Source: Candidatus Woesearchaeota archaeon
GTDB taxonomy: Archaea > Nanobdellota > Nanobdellia > Woesearchaeales > JAZDFJ01
Direction: 5' to 3'
NCBI GenBank assembly: GCA_043807995.1
Contig: JAZDFJ010000058.1
Coordinates: 1-32,077 of the forward strand
Length of the DNA stretch: 32,077 nt
The translations under genes and the position numbers were made by a program. The notes under the pieces are model-generated. The model searched no databases, had not been told where the DNA came from, and saw only the letters and a program-made list of their open reading frames with translations. Positions within the stretch are counted from its first letter, which is position 1, and the number at the start of each line of letters is the position of its first letter. Shown here one piece after another: positions 8,775 to 31,597 of the stretch.

Positions 8775-9875
8775 ATGAAGAAATTATTGGCAATATTGGT
8801 TGCCTTGGTGCTGGTTTTACCGGCAGCTTTGGCAATAAGCGTAGGCGGAGGAATAACTCCTGTTATTGAGACAGAGAACTTTGGACCATTGGTGTGGTTG
8901 TGCGACAACAGGATAGTTATGGACGACGCAGTTGAGTGGGGAAGAGTTTCACTTGATGGCGAAGAAATGTTCGAGAGAATAAACAACTACGCATTTGAAG
9001 GAGAACAAATAGCATGGCTCGTTCTTGTCATGGATAAGAATGGAGTTCCAGAGAAGCTCGATGTCTACGGAGCAATCGGAACAGATCAGGACTTAGACAT
9101 TGATGGCATTGAAGTGAACTGTGAGTACATCGGCGCATTACCGGGAGAGCAGGGAGTTCTGCCAGAATGTAATGCAAGAATCGATGAAGAAATGGTTGAA
9201 TGGAATGGAGAACTCATGGGATACTACCAATGTACTTTGACAGTTGAAACTCCATTATCTATGTACGGAGAGTACTGGGTGACAATCGCAGCAACAGACC
9301 TCGATGATTTAACAGGCACAATGGATGAGAACGAATACTGGTTCTTCAATCCAGTCATTGCATTAAGCATTGACGGCACAATCTCATTTGAGGATGTCAG
9401 GCCAGGAACAGACAGCTACTCAGACACATTGTTATTGACCAACGATGCAGAGGACGGAAGCGGAGTTATGCTTGATATGTTCATATCAGGTACAGACTTC
9501 TACGACTCTTCAAGCAGCGGCGCAATGTGCCCAACAACAAACCAGCTCTCATTGAGCACCTTCAGGTACTTTGCAACAAACGGAGCTTACAGCACCTATG
9601 ATGATCTCGAAGCAGATGATGGGAACTATGACCCAATCACATTAAGAGACTCAGACGTAGAAGGTTATGTCAACATACAGTACGGTGACCACTTTGACAG
9701 AACCATGTACGATGAGGCAGAGATCTTACAGGAGCAGTTAATAGCACCTTACTATGTTGCAAACATTTTAGCACCTGGAGCTGACATGGCCATAACATTC
9801 AAGTTAAGCCTGCCAGAACCATGCAATGGTGACTTCGATACCGGATCATTATACTTCTGGGCAGAAGCCATCTAA
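8775..9875 (+). CDS. Secreted Cys-containing surface protein, paralog 1
   Basis: Signal peptide MKKLLAILVALVLVLPAALA, with GGAGGT SD. Conserved blocks NNYAFEGE, VLVMDKNGVPEK and PEPCNGDFDTGSLYFW are shared with 10377-11531 and 12065-13771. Confidence 0.85.
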   Translation: MKKLLAILVALVLVLPAALAISVGGGITPVIETENFGPLVWLCDNRIVMDDAVEWGRVSLDGEEMFERINNYAFEGEQIAWLVLVMDKNGVPEKLDVYGAIGTDQDLDIDGIEVNCEYIGALPGEQGVLPECNARIDEEMVEWNGELMGYYQCTLTVETPLSMYGEYWVTIAATDLDDLTGTMDENEYWFFNPVIALSIDGTISFEDVRPGTDSYSDTLLLTNDAEDGSGVMLDMFISGTDFYDSSSSGAMCPTTNQLSLSTFRYFATNGAYSTYDDLEADDGNYDPITLRDSDVEGYVNIQYGDHFDRTMYDEAEILQEQLIAPYYVANILAPGADMAITFKLSLPEPCNGDFDTGSLYFWAEAI

Positions 9876-10290: not shown

Positions 10291-10376
10291 TTCAAAAATA
10301 CCAACAGCATAATATTTACCCGAAGCAAAACAAGCATACAAAAAAGCGGTGAAGAAATGTATAGAGGGTGGGCGAA

Positions 10377-11531
10377 ATGAATAAGAACAGCAGATCCGGC
10401 TTTAATGCCAGACCAATAATAAACAAGCTCTTTTGCTTGATTAGTTTGTTCTGTGCAATAATAATATTAACTCCTTTTGCGCATGCAATTGACGTTGGCG
10501 CAGACATGGATTTAGATGTTGAAGTTGAAAACTTTTCTCCATTAGTGTGGATGTGCGGACACAGAGAGGTTTATGATGACAATATTGAATGGGGGAGATT
10601 TGTTGAACCGGCTCCCGACCGTGACGTGCTTCTCGAGAGAGTGAATAACTATGCATTCGAAGGAGAGGCTGTAAGGATATATGTATTGGTCATGGACAAG
10701 AACGGAGTGCCTGAAAAGATAAGAGATGTTTATGCAACACTTGGCACAACTCAGGGAGCTGGAAACGATATAGAGGTAAACTGCGTATTCAGGGATGATA
10801 TTGACGTGATAGTCGAGTCATGCAATGCAGAAATAGATGAGGAAGAGCTGGAGGAGTTCGACCCTGAGATAATGGCATACTACGAGTGCATCTTCACTGT
10901 CGAGACACCATTGTCCATGTACGGAGAATACTGGCTGACAGTTGAGGCTGAAGACATTGACGGCTTATTAGGCACAATCGATGAAAATGAATACTGGTTT
11001 TTCAATCCGGTTATTGCAATAAGCATCGACGGCACACTCTCGTTTGAGGATGTCAGGCCAGGAACAGACAGCTACTCAGACACACTGCTGATTTCCAATG
11101 ATGCAGATGACGGCAGCGGGGTTATGCTTGATATGTTTATATCAGGTACAGACTTCTACGACTCTGCAAACAGCGGCGCAATGTGCCCGACAACAAACCA
11201 GATTGCACTGAGCAGTTTCAGGTACTTTGCAACAAACGGAGCTTTCAGCACCTATGATGACATGGAGGTTGATGTCAACACTTATGACCCTGTAACAATA
11301 AGGGATTCAGATGCAGAAGGTTATGTCAACATACAATACGGTGACCACTTTGACAGGACAATGTATGACGAGGCAGAGATACTCCAGCAGGACTATATTG
11401 CACCGTACTATGTTGCAAACATACTGGCTCCTGGAGCTGACATGGCATTGACATTCAAGTTAAGCCTGCCAGAACCATGCAATGGTGACTTCGATACCGG
11501 ATCATTATACTTCTGGGGAGAGGCCATCTAA
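10377..11531 (+). CDS. Secreted Cys-containing surface protein, paralog 2
   Basis: GAGGGTG SD before ATG 10377; the ORF track starts at GTG 10368. It has a hydrophobic signal segment ending AHA. The C-terminal ~215 aa are about 85% identical to paralog 1. Confidence 0.85.
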   Translation: MNKNSRSGFNARPIINKLFCLISLFCAIIILTPFAHAIDVGADMDLDVEVENFSPLVWMCGHREVYDDNIEWGRFVEPAPDRDVLLERVNNYAFEGEAVRIYVLVMDKNGVPEKIRDVYATLGTTQGAGNDIEVNCVFRDDIDVIVESCNAEIDEEELEEFDPEIMAYYECIFTVETPLSMYGEYWLTVEAEDIDGLLGTIDENEYWFFNPVIAISIDGTLSFEDVRPGTDSYSDTLLISNDADDGSGVMLDMFISGTDFYDSANSGAMCPTTNQIALSSFRYFATNGAFSTYDDMEVDVNTYDPVTIRDSDAEGYVNIQYGDHFDRTMYDEAEILQQDYIAPYYVANILAPGADMALTFKLSLPEPCNGDFDTGSLYFWGEAI

Positions 11532-12064: not shown

Positions 12065-13771
12065 ATGAAAAAAGAGGAAAAAATTGTTTTCAATATAGCA
12101 ATAACAGCAGTGCTTGTTATGTTTACAGCAGCCTTTATGGCCTGCCCTGCGGCAGCAATAAGCTCCAGCATTGGAGTTGATATCAATGTTGACTCGCAGA
12201 ATTTTCCCCCACTGGTGTGGTTTTACCCTGCAACAAGGATATTTTCACACAGCAACATGGACGGCGCTACAGAGGCGATAGAGAGAATAAACAGCTATGC
12301 TTTTGAAGGGGAGAATATCCAGTGGCAGGTTCTTGTGATGGACAAGAACGGCATAGAGAAAGTCGGCGATGTACGCGTTACAGCAGGCCCGACACAGGGC
12401 GAGGGAAACCCGATAGAGGCGAACTGTGCTGTGTGGACCGACTGCTGGACAGAATGGCTTGGCGAAGACATGGACAGCGATGGAGTTATAAACGTCAATG
12501 ACAACTGCCCTGATGTTGCCAACCCAAGCCAGGCAGACAGCGACGGAGATGGAGCAGGCAATGCCTGCGATGACAGGGTCGGCAACGGCGGAGACGGAGG
12601 AGCAGCCAGCCTGCATCTCAATATTAAAATACACAGGCCGACAGAGTCTGTGCCTGCAGGAAACTTCTACAGAGTAGGCGACACATTCAGGATGTGTGCT
12701 GAATTCGAGAATATAGGCACTGCAACAAGGACAATTACTCCTGAAAGCTTTGTCAACAGGGTTCTTGAATGCAACAGCGAGGACCTCAGGTCTGGAGATC
12801 CTGTTTACGGTGAAAATTATCTTGTGAATTGCCATTGGGCCCATAATGATTTGCAGGTTAATGTGCACAGGGTGCAGCATGACCCTGTAACTCTCGACCC
12901 TGGTGAGACAGAAGAGGTATGCTTTGAATGGCAGGTCGATTCAACAGGATACTTCCAGTATGACCTTGGCATTTTCGGATATCCAGGATGGTCTTGGGGA
13001 TTTATCAGGGCAAAGGATTACTGCGAGAACTTCTCATTCCCGCCTCCAAGCGAGGTAAATGCAAGGATAGGAGAGGAATACATCACAGAATTCAATCCTG
13101 AGCTAATGAGATGGTACACCTGCACATTGACTGTTGAAACCCCGTTCTCAATGTACGGAGAGTACTGGGTGACAGTCGAGGCGCACGACCTTGACGGCCT
13201 GTACGGCACAATGGACGAGAACGAGCACTGGTATTTCAACCCTGTTATTGCATTGTCAGTTGACGGCTATCTTGATTTCGGCGAGTTAATGCCTGGCACA
13301 ACAGGATACTCGAATTCTATCCTCGTCGAAAACGATGCCGACCATGGCTCAGGAGTCATGCTTGACATGTTTATATCAGGCACAGACTTCTACGACTCTG
13401 CAAGCAGCGGCGCAATGTGCCCTGACAGCAATGTCTTGGAGCTTGAGAATTTCAGATACTATGCGACAAATGGAGCTTACAGCACCACGCCGTTTGGAGT
13501 CGGCAGCATAGGAACGATTGGACCCGGAACTTACATAAGAGGAGACCAGGAGGGATATTTCAACATCCCATACCACTCAAGCTATGCAGACAGGGAGCAG
13601 ATAATCGAGGGCGACGGAGAGATTGCGCTGGACCCGGAGCATATGTACAGCCTGGGAAACGTGCTTGCGACAGGCTCAAAGATGGCACTGACATTCAAGC
13701 TAAACCTGCCAGAGCCATGCAACGGCGACTTTAACACAGGAGAGATAAGGTTCTGGGGAGAGCCGATATAA
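12065..13771 (+). CDS. Secreted surface protein, paralog 3, with a TSP type-3 Ca-binding repeat and CARDB-like insert
   Basis: Signal peptide ending AAA and GAGGTGG SD. It shares the family N- and C-terminal blocks. The ~200-aa insert contains DSDGVINVNDNCPDVANPSQADSDGDGAGNACDD, matching the DxDxDGxxDxxDNCP..N..Q.D.D.DG.G..CD pattern. Confidence 0.85.
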   Translation: MKKEEKIVFNIAITAVLVMFTAAFMACPAAAISSSIGVDINVDSQNFPPLVWFYPATRIFSHSNMDGATEAIERINSYAFEGENIQWQVLVMDKNGIEKVGDVRVTAGPTQGEGNPIEANCAVWTDCWTEWLGEDMDSDGVINVNDNCPDVANPSQADSDGDGAGNACDDRVGNGGDGGAASLHLNIKIHRPTESVPAGNFYRVGDTFRMCAEFENIGTATRTITPESFVNRVLECNSEDLRSGDPVYGENYLVNCHWAHNDLQVNVHRVQHDPVTLDPGETEEVCFEWQVDSTGYFQYDLGIFGYPGWSWGFIRAKDYCENFSFPPPSEVNARIGEEYITEFNPELMRWYTCTLTVETPFSMYGEYWVTVEAHDLDGLYGTMDENEHWYFNPVIALSVDGYLDFGELMPGTTGYSNSILVENDADHGSGVMLDMFISGTDFYDSASSGAMCPDSNVLELENFRYYATNGAYSTTPFGVGSIGTIGPGTYIRGDQEGYFNIPYHSSYADREQIIEGDGEIALDPEHMYSLGNVLATGSKMALTFKLNLPEPCNGDFNTGEIRFWGEPI

Positions 13772-22716: not shown

Positions 22717-22907
22717 TTTCATATCCTCCTTTGCATCCTTTTTTTGGTCTATAATAATAATTGTATGTTATTACTCAATAATAGGTATGTTTAAGTATTT
22801 AAATCTTTCGTTTTTGTCACCACTACGGGATAACAAATCGACTTCAGAGAGAAACATTTATAAACTATTACAAATTAACAATAACATTATTGCAAAAAAA
22901 CAATAAA

Positions 22908-23495
22908 ATGAAAAACTACTTGAAAATAATCAATTTCCTGCTCGACAACAGGAAAGAATCCTTCAGCATAAACCAGATAGCTAAAAGCCTAAGCATGAAT
23001 TACAGGACAGCATTCGAGGAAATCAAAAAACTCGAAACAGAGCAAACCATAAAGATAAAAAAGATAGCAAACTCAAACCAATGCACATTAAACAGCACTC
23101 TCAGCCCAAAGATTTTCGAGGCAGAACATCTCAGGACCGAGAATCTTCTGAAAAACAAAAACATCAAAGTGCTGAGCAGGCATCTTGATAATCTAAACCG
23201 GATGTTTTTCATCTCTCTTATATTCGGCTCTCATGCAAAACAGCAAATAAACAATAATTCAGATATCGACCTGTGCATAATCACAGATGACAATGAATTT
23301 AAAGCACAGGCAGAGCAAACCGCAAGAATTCTGCCTTTAAGCATTCATTTTTTCGGATTCACATCCAAAGAATTTATGAGCATGCTTGAAACAGCAAAGC
23401 CCAATGTAGGAAAAGAGATTGCAAACAGCAACATAATCTTAAGCGGGATAGAGGAATTTTACAAGCTGATTCAATGCTCGACAAGAAACGGATAA
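22908..23495 (+). CDS. wHTH plus minimal nucleotidyltransferase (MNT-type) protein
   Basis: The N-terminal FSINQIAKSLSMNYRTAFEEIKKLE is winged-helix-like. The NTase signature GSHAKQQINNNSDIDLCIITDD is present. ATG 22908 is preferred over TTG 22890. Confidence 0.7.
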   Translation: MKNYLKIINFLLDNRKESFSINQIAKSLSMNYRTAFEEIKKLETEQTIKIKKIANSNQCTLNSTLSPKIFEAEHLRTENLLKNKNIKVLSRHLDNLNRMFFISLIFGSHAKQQINNNSDIDLCIITDDNEFKAQAEQTARILPLSIHFFGFTSKEFMSMLETAKPNVGKEIANSNIILSGIEEFYKLIQCSTRNG

Positions 23496-23618
23496 TAGAA
23501 ACGGCCAACATTCACATATCGAAAGTTTTAAATATCAGCACGTTAATATGTATAATATTAAGATACTTGAGGAGATATGTGTTTCCTGCATCTAGGAAAC
23601 ACAAAAGCCCTCGAAAAA

Positions 23619-23711
23619 ATGAAAGCTATTATTTTTAATGATAAAGACAATTCTGACAGAAGTTTGAATAGATTAAATAAGAACAGAGACATTTCTAGCC
23701 TCAGATTCTGG
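23619..23711 (+). pseudogene. Putative N-terminal fragment of the NYN/LabA-like gene (MKAIIFNDKDN...)
   Basis: IIFNDKDN aligns with the first-strand NYN signature (hhFhDxxN). The frame runs into the 166-bp element and stops at 23751. Deleting 23712-23877 joins it in frame to 23878. Confidence 0.4.
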
Positions 23712-23877
23712 AAAATAACAAAAATTTGCTGCTCAGCGCCATCCCCGGCCTAAAGGCACGGGGTTTTCACGCGCCTCGCTAAAATGCAAATTTTTGGAAT
23801 AGCAAATTTCGACCTGAAGGTCGGGGTATTCATCATCCCCAAGCAATTTCTTCCAGAGGGCGAAATTTCCTATAAAG
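23712..23877 (+). mobile_element. 166-bp structured repeat element, copy A
   Basis: About 90% identical to 30415-30577 in the same orientation. Multiple internal stems are present, and two of them carry compensatory differences between the copies. Confidence 0.8.
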
Positions 23878-24606
23878 TTGCTTCATAAATACATATTTGA
23901 AAAAGTTGAAAGCCTGATTAAAGAGCAATGTCATTGTTTAGAACTGAGCAAAACATTAATTTACACAGGCGAATATAATGTCAAAGCGCTTACAAATGTT
24001 AAAAAAAGCTGCGGTTCGAAAATTAAAGAGATGAATGAGCTTATCACTAAAGAAAATCTGCTATTAGAAAAAGTTAATTCTATTAAAGGATATGACGAAC
24101 TAAAAAAAGATGTTTTAGAACACGTAAATTCAATAAGAAGCGTATTTGAATCAATAAGACAGTCTAACATAGAAGCTATAGCAAAGCAGAACAAAAATGC
24201 ACAAGCACAATCAAATTTCTTTGAATATGTCAAGAATAAACTAAGATTTTCTGAAGTAAGAACAACCCCATTAGTAACACGCGGCGGAAGAATTCAGCAA
24301 AAAGGGGTAGATGCTAAATTCTCAACTGACTTAATATTATTAGCGCAGGCAAATGCATATGATGTGGGCATATTGCTAACAGGAGATGCAGATTTAAAAG
24401 AATCGATTAGATTAGTAAGAGAAAGATATGGCAAAATCATTATATCTGTAGCATACTATGAAGCAGATGAAAGCAAGAGAATTTGGAATACAATCAGCGA
24501 GGATCTAATAAAGGAATGTGACTATTTTATTAATCTTGCAGATTTCTCAGAAAATGAAATAGAGAAAATATCAGTCAAAAAAACGCATTTCCCGAAACAT
24601 TTATAA
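23878..24606 (+). CDS. NYN/LabA-like ribonuclease domain protein, body (possibly a disrupted gene)
   Basis: QQKGVDAKFSTDLILLAQANAYDVGILLTGDADLKESIRLV matches the NYN core (GVD...D...GD.D). The ORF has only a TTG start with no SD. The first in-frame ATG is codon 52. Confidence 0.6.
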   Translation: MLHKYIFEKVESLIKEQCHCLELSKTLIYTGEYNVKALTNVKKSCGSKIKEMNELITKENLLLEKVNSIKGYDELKKDVLEHVNSIRSVFESIRQSNIEAIAKQNKNAQAQSNFFEYVKNKLRFSEVRTTPLVTRGGRIQQKGVDAKFSTDLILLAQANAYDVGILLTGDADLKESIRLVRERYGKIIISVAYYEADESKRIWNTISEDLIKECDYFINLADFSENEIEKISVKKTHFPKHL

Positions 24607-25595: not shown

Positions 25596-25660
25596 GCCAG
25601 AACTATGTTCTGGCATAAACAAAACTGCAGAGCAGTTTTGCCAAACCAGCCATAGGCTGG
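25596..25660. terminator. Three consecutive perfect hairpins between convergent genes
   Basis: GCCAGAAC-TAT-GTTCTGGC, CAAAACTGC-AGA-GCAGTTTTG and CCAGCC-ATA-GGCTGG lie back to back. Confidence 0.45.
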
Positions 25661-30414: not shown

Positions 30415-30577
30415 AAATAACAAAAATTCGCTGCTCGGCGCTATCCCTGGCCTAAAGGCGCAGGGTATTTACGCGCCTCGCTTAAAGGCGAATTTTTGGA
30501 ATAGCAAATTTCGACCTGAAGGTCGGGGTATTCATCATCCCCCGGCAATTTCTCCAGAAGTCGAAATTTCCTATAAG
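30415..30577 (+). mobile_element. Structured repeat element, copy B (partner of 23712-23877)
   Basis: Intergenic, ending 12 nt before the amrS ATG. The differences from copy A include paired compensatory changes. Confidence 0.8.
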
Positions 30578-30589
30578 ATCCAAGGAAGC

Positions 30590-31597
30590 ATGAAACAAGC
30601 GTCTCTCTATTCCAAACATGAAAATCTTATCCTGTGCCATCTCTGCCCGCACAGCTGCAAAATTCCAGAGGGAAAGACAGGCATATGCGGAGTGAGGATA
30701 AACAAGGGTGGAAAGCTCTATTCTCTTGTCTATGGAAAGCCTGTTGCAGTGCACATCGACCCTGTCGAGAAAAAGCCGTTGTTCCATTTTCTTCCAGGAG
30801 AAAAGGCATTAAGCATAGGCACTTTAGGGTGCAACCTGAAATGCCTGCACTGCCAGAACTGGGACATCTCGCAGAAAAGAGACCTGAAAGAAATAGAATC
30901 GATAAAAGAGGTTTCTCCTAAAGAGATTGTTGAGCTTGCAGTAAAAAACAAATGCAGGATAATAGCCTACACCTACAATGAGCCGACAATATTCTTTGAA
31001 TACATGAAAGACATTGCAGTGCTTGCAAAAAATAAAGGGATAAAAAACATAATAGTGAGCAATGGCTTCACAGGCAAAGAAGCACTGCAGGAGATGGTCG
31101 GTTTCATCGACGCTGCTAATATCGATCTCAAGGGATTCGGCGACGATTTCTATAAAAAAACCTGCTCTGCAAGGCTCGAGCCTGTGCTGGAAACACTGAA
31201 GTTCCTGAAAAAAAACAATGTCTGGCTTGAGATAACAAATCTCATAATCCCCACACTAAATGACGAGCCAAAGGAAATTAAAGAGATGTGCATCTGGATA
31301 AAGGAAAACCTCGGAGCAGACGTGCCATTGCACTTCTCTGCATTCCATCCTGACTACAAGCTTGCAGAGCTCTCATCAACTCCTGTTGAAACACTGAACA
31401 AAGCCTTTGACATTGCAAAAAAGGCAGGATTAAACTATGTTTACCTCGGCAATGTCTTTGCAGGAGAAAAGGAAAACACATTCTGCCATAGCTGCGGACA
31501 GCTTTTGATTGAGAGAGCAGGATTTAGAGTTGTAAAGAACATTCTGAAAAACAGCAGATGTCCTGGCTGCAATTCAAGGATTGCAGGGATATTCTGA
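30590..31597 (+). CDS. amrS: AmmeMemoRadiSam system radical SAM enzyme
   Basis: N-terminal CHLCPHSC..GICGVR cluster, DPVEKKPLFHFLPG, and the radical SAM motif CNLKCLHCQNW. Confidence 0.85.
   Translation: MKQASLYSKHENLILCHLCPHSCKIPEGKTGICGVRINKGGKLYSLVYGKPVAVHIDPVEKKPLFHFLPGEKALSIGTLGCNLKCLHCQNWDISQKRDLKEIESIKEVSPKEIVELAVKNKCRIIAYTYNEPTIFFEYMKDIAVLAKNKGIKNIIVSNGFTGKEALQEMVGFIDAANIDLKGFGDDFYKKTCSARLEPVLETLKFLKKNNVWLEITNLIIPTLNDEPKEIKEMCIWIKENLGADVPLHFSAFHPDYKLAELSSTPVETLNKAFDIAKKAGLNYVYLGNVFAGEKENTFCHSCGQLLIERAGFRVVKNILKNSRCPGCNSRIAGIF

Follow-up and report, generated by a model that had tools for sequence, protein, structure and literature searches.

A transposase-less, PATE-like insertion of probable IS200/IS605 origin in an NYN/LabA-like RNase gene of a Woesearchaeota archaeon

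Why does a compact, hairpin-rich repeat lie inside an archaeal RNase gene in such a way that its removal leaves one continuous open reading frame (ORF)? This question is raised by contig JAZDFJ010000058.1 of a Candidatus Woesearchaeota archaeon (assembly GCA_043807995.1), all 32,077 nucleotides of which were analysed and are called the window here. A first, sequence-only reading had noticed two copies of the repeat, one (copy A) between a short ORF and the core ORF of an NYN/LabA-like RNase and one (copy B) in an intergenic region. It preferred a mobile element that inactivated the gene and named removal of the insert as an alternative. Our analysis makes it highly probable that copies A and B are PATEs, that is, transposase-less derivatives of the IS200/IS605 family which are served in trans by a Y1 (HUH) transposase, TnpA. 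The mobile-element view is thereby supported and given a family, and copy A is an ordinary insertional gene disruption, not an intron. The interrupted gene and the junctions of the insert are composed of the following parts:

23619..23718, + strand: 5' fragment of the NYN gene, codons 1-33 (MKAIIFNDKDN...RFWKI) plus the initial base of codon 34; alignable residue by residue with 19 ortholog N-termini
23715..23718, + strand: ATAA at the left junction of copy A, part of the conserved target RAATAA, which is TTATTY on the transposase-sense strand
23719..23875, + strand: copy A, very probably a PATE; a 157-bp non-coding insertion without counterpart in the orthologs, 90% identical to copy B
23872..23875, + strand: ATAA at the right junction of copy A, either the terminal motif of the element itself or the target motif TTAT on the other strand
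23876..24606, + strand: 3' fragment of the NYN gene with the Pfam NYN core; begins with bases two and three of the K34 codon and extends to the stop

The boundaries of the insert were derived from orthologs of the RNase. The short upstream ORF and the NYN core ORF were joined into one query, for which a homolog search returned 25 proteins besides the product of the window itself, and the 19 full-length ones were aligned. They share 40-68% identity with the window protein over the full length, and the NYN domain (PF01936) was matched at E = 7e-13 in residues 116-251. D8 and N11 of the first NYN strand are invariant in this alignment and both sit on the short upstream ORF. Its start, MKAIIFNDKDN, had been taken to resemble that strand, and it is indeed the genuine N-terminus. 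The locus is thus a single gene of 276 amino acids interrupted by 157 bp. In all 19 orthologs three residues (KIK, KIG or KIE) separate RFW from L(F/L)H, and therefore the insert comprises 157 bp and not the 166 bp proposed before. Removal of 166 bp is arithmetically in frame, but its boundaries are 9 bp off and the three conserved residues would be lost; intact orthologs do align across the junction, at this shifted position. The DNA of the closest ortholog reads AGATTCTGGAAAATCGG here, which is why TGGAAAAT has to be counted as gene sequence and not as insert, and AGATTCTGGAAAAT of the 5' fragment is common to window and ortholog. Taking out the 157 bp gives ...SSLRFWKIKLLHKYIF..., in which TGG AAA ATA AAG TTG encodes ...RFWKIKLLH..., and the empty site after exact loss would read TTCTGGAAAATAAAGTTGCTTC. 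Because ATAA stands at both junctions, the placement of copy A can slide by 4 nt (23715-23871 to 23719-23875). A strain with the empty site was sought by exact-protein look-up of the genes of the window, with no matching records.

The interrupted reading frame enters the element and stops at a TAA (23751-23753), 33 nt into it. The 3' fragment offers only a TTG start and no ATG, as had been noted before, and it lacks the Asp-bearing first strand. Judged from these sequence features, the NYN gene is expected to be inactivated and its protein not to be made. Expression of the 3' fragment as one part of a split protein was considered and rejected, since it has no ATG but TTG only and the strand with the catalytic Asp is on the other fragment. 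Apart from the insert the ORF is undecayed: it deviates at 3 of the 71 columns with at least 90% conservation, each time conservatively, which is within the range of the intact orthologs. As the frame is intact in this sense, the insertion is probably recent, or the gene still recoverable.

The second copy lies upstream of amrS:

30421..30576, + strand: copy B, very probably a PATE, 156 bp; better preserved than copy A
30590..31597, + strand: amrS, encoding an AmmeMemoRadiSam radical SAM enzyme, downstream of copy B; context only, not part of the element; TIGR04337 at 409.7 bits versus a cutoff of 220

The reported identity of about 90% was borne out: the window holds two real copies of the repeat, 89-90% identical over about 165 nt, with 15 substitutions and one indel across the 157-bp element. 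Copy B has divergently transcribed genes on its two sides, and its end is 13 nt ahead of the ATG of amrS, directly upstream of that gene as stated previously. It is flanked by ATAA at 30417-30420 and terminates in ATAA at 30573-30576. The two paired stem substitutions claimed from sequence alone are real as well. In the outer stem P1 a T-A pair of copy A corresponds to C-G in copy B, and in the inner hairpin P3 a C-G pair of copy A corresponds to T-A. In a simple simulation about 0.19 compensated pairs were expected by chance between the two copies (P ~0.014 for at least two). Five other, one-sided changes break pairs of copy A that stay intact in copy B, so copy A is the more degraded one. 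Folding of the copies is far better than that of shuffled sequence (z = -3.2 and -7.1), and both contain stops in all six frames and are too short for a transposase.

The fold consists of two domains, which are given here for copy A:

23719..23796, + strand: domain 1, an extended hairpin in which the stems P1, P2 and P3 are stacked
23719-23729 with 23786-23796, + strand: stem P1, which encloses P2
23743-23763, + strand: hairpin P3, CCCCGGCC-TAAA-GGCaCGGGG
23797..23875, + strand: domain 2, in which the closing stem P4 encloses P5 and P6
23799-23811 with 23861-23873, + strand: closing stem P4
23810-23823, + strand: hairpin P5, CGACC-TGAA-GGTCG
23823-23840, + strand: hairpin P6, GGGG-loop-CCCC, directly after P5

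The tip of domain 1 is a conserved CC-TAAA-GG loop followed by GGTAT. Hairpins P3 and P5 are alike and lie on one strand, both of the form stem-TRAA-stem followed by GGG, with GGGTAT trailing P3 and GGGGTAT trailing P5. No terminal inverted repeats connect the ends of the element, and each half closes on itself. An origin from two independently inserted single-hairpin units was rejected, as the junction of the two domains carries no target motif and their order is conserved.

Is this repeat confined to the window? A genome collection was scanned with a 19-mer from the most conserved block. Of the 45 loci returned, BLAST showed most to be chance matches of this GC-rich 19-mer in bacteria of high GC, and these were discarded. 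Related copies are found in at least six metagenome-assembled genomes (MAGs) of DPANN archaea, at unrelated sites and often at contig ends. Three of them (L010, L038, L044) belong to the Nanoarchaeota isolate Modern_marine.mb.317, five (L003, L009, L014, L023, L040) occupy different sites of one MAG, all at or near contig ends, and further true homologs are L035, L016 together with L036, and L006, which comes from a Woesearchaeota MAG. Six additional loci were obtained by scanning metagenomes. The flanks are unlike at every site, and even L047 and L051, which are 97% identical and come from the same metagenome, have different contexts. All copies other than copy A are intergenic. No ORF family common to their neighbourhoods was found, tnpB or transposase-like ORFs included, and three pattern scans of a viral collection gave chance matches only. 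Small extra hairpins occur at variable places in L044, L047/L051 and L050.

Two observations on related hairpins can be added here. In L035, a second, divergent family member (416-531) follows 95 nt after the first. It shares the termini, with AAATAA in front of CAAAAATG at one end and TTTTCAATAA at the other, and has a P3-type hairpin with inverted loop (CCCCTGCC-TTTA-GGCAGGGG); its second half is different and lacks the P5/P6 core. The family is therefore broader than our pattern search could capture. In the window, three consecutive short hairpins (CCAGAAC-TAT-GTTCTGG, AAAACTGC-AGA-GCAGTTTT and CCAGCC-ATA-GGCTGG) lie in the intergenic region 25597-25660 downstream of an M24 peptidase gene, and they resemble the small modules nested in copies L044 and L050.

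The dispersed copies allowed a comparison of the stems. An alignment by MAFFT with RNAalifold missed most of domain 1, and a structure given by hand together with a covariance model was used. Such an alignment is fitted to the model and favours pairing, which makes a control with slid partners the fairer comparison: among 11 distinct copies, 94.9% of the domain 1 cells are paired, and shifting the 3' partners by one to three columns lowers this to 35-49%. Changes on both sides occur in 18 of the 26 pairs of domain 1. Stem P4 of domain 2 is paired to 97%, with compensatory changes in 4 of its 10 pairs; these figures concern P4, the conservation of P5 and P6 being imposed by the search pattern. 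The earlier inference that the fold is conserved beyond the sequence proved right, and the further copies do covary. Nevertheless, it is a DNA hairpin that is indicated. Were the stems those of a functional RNA, G-U should be accepted on the strand of this RNA much more readily than A-C. The 274 cells contain 257 Watson-Crick pairs, 3 G-T pairs and 4 A-C mismatches. Since G-T is no commoner than A-C, these statistics, as far as sequences can tell, point to constraint on a DNA hairpin and show no RNA signature.

This observation bears on the view that the copies are in the first place a functional structured RNA or regulatory module (an omega-RNA-like guide of TnpB, a portable terminator or a portable promoter) and only secondarily mobile, which we regard as quite improbable. 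Besides the missing strand-specific wobble signature, there is no conserved neighbour gene, tnpB included. The arms contain T-runs, at which archaeal transcription would probably stop inside the element. No match to Rfam was obtained for the whole window at gathering thresholds, and with E up to 10 the element gave chance-level snoRNA fragments only; ARAGORN reported nothing meaningful. On the other hand, the covariation extends to P1, P2 and P4 and so beyond the known needs of TnpA, and the hairpin modules at variable positions of L044, L050 and L047 are reminiscent of expansion segments. Several copies are located just upstream of genes in the same orientation, a TATA-like ...TATAA is regenerated by the right end, and omega-RNAs are often encoded by PATEs (PMC10055086).

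Removal at the RNA level, either as a bulge-helix-bulge intron or as a self-splicing or ribozyme RNA, would produce the spliced junction UGGAAAAUAAAGUUG in the NYN transcript. It could explain why loss of 157 nt restores an ortholog-like frame in an undecayed ORF, and the end of exon 1 can pair with the 3' end of the element in a 4-bp GGAA/UUCC helix whose register suits symmetric cleavage. However, frame restoration is automatic after any clean insertion. The junctions form nothing but this GGAA(A)/(U)UUCC helix of 4-5 bp, with flanking helices that reach no more than 1 and 2 bp and no bulge-helix-bulge, and its UUCC strand is taken up by P4, which is much stronger. The copies elsewhere lie between genes and have unrelated flanks, the stems lack an excess of G-U over A-C, and a search of Rfam extended to E up to 10 gave neither an intron nor a ribozyme. 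We consider this explanation extremely unlikely, the least probable of all discussed here, and the RNA-level alternative of the sequence-only reading is not upheld.

If the element inserts as DNA, its sites should be informative. RAATAA is present on the same side in 9/9 independent insertion sites of subfamily 1, which includes the copies of the window, and in these sites the flanking base after the terminal ...ATAA is always a purine. On the other strand the target thus reads TTAT, then T and a pyrimidine. Every copy of both subfamilies ends in ...ATAA; of these features the second subfamily (L049, L009, L014, L050) shares only the ...TATAA end. These sites were also examined with respect to a classical miniature inverted-repeat transposable element (MITE), which would have terminal inverted repeats, a DDE-type transposase and a target-site duplication of 4 bp (ATAA) or 2 bp. 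The element is small, non-coding and multi-copy, each copy of subfamily 1 has ATAA at both junctions, and the AAATTT-rich end arms of copies A and B superficially look like inverted repeats. Yet these arms pair inside their own half and not with each other, and the termini of L036 (left CAAAAACTCGC, right GTCGAACTTGTCAATAA) have no similarity at all. Furthermore the target is asymmetric and was used in one orientation in 9/9 sites (two-sided P ~0.004 under random orientation). Two more arguments against a MITE, which leave it with little probability, come from the transposase genes treated in the following: homologs of the core hairpins flank Y1 transposase genes, and the tnpA-bearing relative L097 makes no duplication.

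The link to Y1 transposases was found by tblastn with IS200 and IS608 TnpA sequences, and the match was confirmed independently by Pfam. Among the fetched loci a TnpA match was detected in L006, about 110 nt from the element core, where an ORF encodes a Y1_Tnp protein of 140 amino acids (PF01797, E = 1.2e-20). A search for homologs of this TnpA gave 148 matches, one of them named 'IS200/IS605 family transposase [Candidatus Woesearchaeota archaeon]' by NCBI. Comparing the L006 element with the synteny of the window yielded no empty site. Loci L096, L086-L095 and L097-L101 were fetched solely through homology of the TnpA protein, and these tnpA loci repeat the layout of L006, in which tnpA lies between the P5/P6 core and a P3-type hairpin. 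Upstream of tnpA we find the reverse complement of CG(A/C)CC-T(G/A)AA-GG(T/G)CG-GGGG-TTTA(A/G)ACCC, a P5/P6 core with a compensatory change from A-T to C-G. Downstream lies the P3-type hairpin CCCCGCAC-TTTA/TAAA-GTGCGGGG, which in L086 is identical (17/17 nt) to the domain 1 hairpin of copy L050.

One of these elements was also informative on the mode of insertion. The tnpA-bearing element of L097 (1040-1672; also in L098-L101) interrupts a GAPDH gene in marine TARA contigs of several samples, and cutting out GCGAGCGTAGCGAGC...GGAGGTCACT restores ...DIELVA/VNDLAEAE... (the slash marking the junction) with no duplicated base. On the transposase-sense strand, TTAT stands 5' of the upstream end in every transposase-less copy. 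Four tnpA-bearing elements have TTAGA, TTAGA, TTAAC and TGTAT at this position, and the other side is not conserved.

As to the genomic distribution of these genes, Y1 transposase P0101 (L086-L095) was seen in one fixed context across 24 contigs from different samples and P0091 (L097-L101) in one fixed context across 5 contigs, likewise from different samples. Such fixed tnpA loci reflect either a RAYT-like single-copy behaviour or one population that was sampled repeatedly.

PATEs are defined by the lack of terminal inverted repeats, of target duplication and of coding capacity, and by near-terminal palindromes of IS605 type (PMC3119063). In the IS200/IS605 family, the Y1 transposase TnpA reads sub-terminal DNA hairpins on one strand, inserts the element downstream of a short motif and excises it without a scar (PMC10055086). 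Copies A and B are very probably of this kind, because they lack inverted repeats and coding capacity and have near-terminal IS605-like palindromes, and because the L097 relative shows no duplication. According to this model, each copy would have kept only the two hairpin-bearing ends of an archaeal IS200/IS605 element. TnpA would recognise the two similar sub-terminal hairpins (stem-TRAA-stem, then GGG) on single-stranded DNA and insert the element beside TTAT (RAATAA on the + strand of the window), in one orientation and without target duplication. By analogy with the known family, transposition would follow the single-strand 'peel-and-paste' route, and the cognate tnpA is presumably present elsewhere in the genome of this organism. 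Copy A would then have entered the NYN gene between ATA and AAG of TGG AAA ATA AAG TTG, thereby adding 157 bp, a frameshift and a stop, and copy B a sequence rich in A/T ahead of amrS, either intergenic or promoter. The circle junction of the excised single strand would read ...CCTATAA followed by CAAAAATT....

Several points weigh against this assignment. No tnpA or other Y1 transposase gene was found in the 32-kb window, and none of the loci contained an autonomous element with the exact outer arms of the PATEs (P1, P2, P4); the core hairpins alone are shared. These outer stems covary strongly, and we know of no requirement of TnpA for them. An extra constraint on P1, P2 and P4 is possible, be it hairpin stability, transcription termination or a role as RNA. 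The ATAA at both junctions in the window can formally be read as a 4-bp target-site duplication. Finally, cleavage can be placed only within the 4-nt ambiguity, and either strand could be the active 'top' strand.

How does the family compare with described systems? The definition of PATEs, which derive from IS200/IS605-type elements, goes back to Haloquadratum walsbyi (PMC3119063), and Geobacillus was later seen to have them as well (PMC10055086). Like these, the present elements are non-coding, 130-320 bp long and devoid of terminal inverted repeats; their near-terminal palindromes resemble each other and those beside IS200-type tnpA genes, they insert beside a short conserved oligonucleotide, and the members are heterogeneous, with core indels and nested small hairpin inserts. 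They differ from the known PATEs in their host, which belongs to the DPANN group (Woesearchaeota/Nanoarchaeota-like) and is neither a haloarchaeon nor a bacterium, and in that the hairpins are only the inner part of two far longer stem domains with covariation throughout. Their partner element (IS200 group) has tnpA only, with no tnpB or omega-RNA evident, and the same tetranucleotide is found at both junctions. With IS608, ISDra2, IS200 and other IS200/IS605 elements they have in common the sub-terminal hairpins on one strand at both ends, the orientation-specific insertion 3' of a motif of 4-6 nt, without duplication in the L097 relative, and the association of the same hairpins with a Y1_Tnp gene of 140 codons (L006, L096, L086, L097). 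In contrast to such elements, the copies in the window carry no transposase.

REPINs are, to our knowledge, known from bacteria only. The bacterial REPIN-RAYT systems are similar in their long imperfect palindromes that evolve by compensatory changes and in being non-autonomous and served in trans by a hairpin-flanked Y1 transposase; the two TnpA homologs each found at one fixed locus would fit as well, with the reservation that this may reflect one population resampled. REPINs, however, consist of two REPs in inverted arrangement and bear a GTAG or CGTC tag, whereas here the hairpins are direct, a GTAG tag is absent and TnpA has the ordinary length of IS200 transposases. Classical MITEs such as Correia/NEMIS and the SM elements of Sulfolobus are likewise small, multi-copy, hairpin-prone and non-coding and lie in or near genes, and according to a census the density of MITEs is high in a genome of Woesearchaea (PMC11602168). 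The present family deviates from them by the lack of whole-element inverted repeats, by its asymmetric target used in one orientation and by the link to Y1 instead of DDE transposases. Archaeal bulge-helix-bulge introns (e.g. in cbf5) and the Rickettsia palindromic elements, which are translated in frame, also interrupt an ORF and leave both halves intact. Copy A is distinguished from both by the absence of the bulge-helix-bulge motif, a length that is not a multiple of three, stops in all frames and the intergenic position of the other copies.

What, then, is the meaning of the insertion for the RNase gene? Further orthologs carry lesions near the 5' end of the gene. In L065 codon 28 is an in-frame TAA (~2860; also in L066-L068), L071 has a TAA in place of the invariant E63 (~115), and the RFWKI codons of L070 coincide with a breakpoint, or chimeric junction, to a fragment of an SDR gene (~185-205). 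All three are well conserved apart from the 5' lesion. This suggests that the gene is often lost or counter-selected, which fits a simple loss-of-function insertion. The truncated homologs P0021, P0022, P0024 and P0025 were checked as candidates for more insertions of the element and rejected: one owes its truncation to a mis-called start, nonsense codons account for two, and the contig of the remaining one is chimeric or rearranged.

Scarless excision by TnpA could restore the NYN gene exactly, which is possible and, by analogy with the family, mechanistically plausible; nothing indicates that it is programmed. In combination with the undecayed RNase ORF, as opposed to the degenerating copy A, and with the three other early-disrupted orthologs, it leads to the speculation that the PATE is a reversible switch of a toxin-like RNase. 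Separately, the tnpA-only elements and the dispersed hairpins might be an archaeal counterpart of REPIN-RAYT. Both ideas are unlikely in our estimation.

The surroundings of the NYN gene show further features. Its leader (23520-23618) is conserved in four orthologous loci (the window, L062, L065 and L069) and comprises, in this order, a BRE/TATA-like box CGAAAGTTTTAAATA (23520-23534), AAGATACTTGAGGAG (23560-23574) and a hairpin GTGTTTCC-loop-GGAAACAC (23579-23602) with a compensatory change GTGTTCCCC/GGGGAACAC in L062. It is a candidate cis-regulatory 5' leader. A gene for a Pol-beta-type nucleotidyltransferase adjoins the NYN gene, upstream in the window (22890-23495) and downstream in L065 (3654-4160); its similarity to the MntA antitoxin and to HalB is weak, and the adjacency is missing in L062 and L069. 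The two genes could form a toxin-antitoxin or defence-like pairing.

The window as a whole is a low-GC fragment of an archaeal chromosome with genes for RNA polymerase A'/A'', NusA, S12, Cbf5 and AmrS, among others, and its best protein matches are labelled Woesearchaeota or Pacearchaeota. Two further repeats were observed in it. Three paralogous genes (8775-9875, 10368-11531 and 12065-13771) share internal blocks of 66-92% identity and a repeated downstream sequence, with A/T-rich tandem repeats between them, and only the third has a Pfam match (TSP_3). A tandem array of about 10 copies of the 13-nt unit AAAGAAAAACAAA is situated between the genes of RNA polymerase A' and A'' (2021-2176).

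PATEs and IS200/IS605 elements are already known, in archaea too; new is a PATE family in a poorly studied lineage. With its IS200-type relatives it is now documented in DPANN archaea, whose mobile elements are poorly described, and an apparent structured intron in an RNase gene becomes a correctly annotated transposon insertion, by which the model of the NYN gene is fixed. The family is a natural data set on the evolution of DNA hairpins recognised by TnpA, with near-pure Watson-Crick compensation under retention of the TRAA loop and the 3' GGG. PATE-like repeats of this kind break DPANN assemblies. Moreover, scarless excision makes such insertions potentially reversible knock-outs, which is relevant when gene content is deduced from MAGs.

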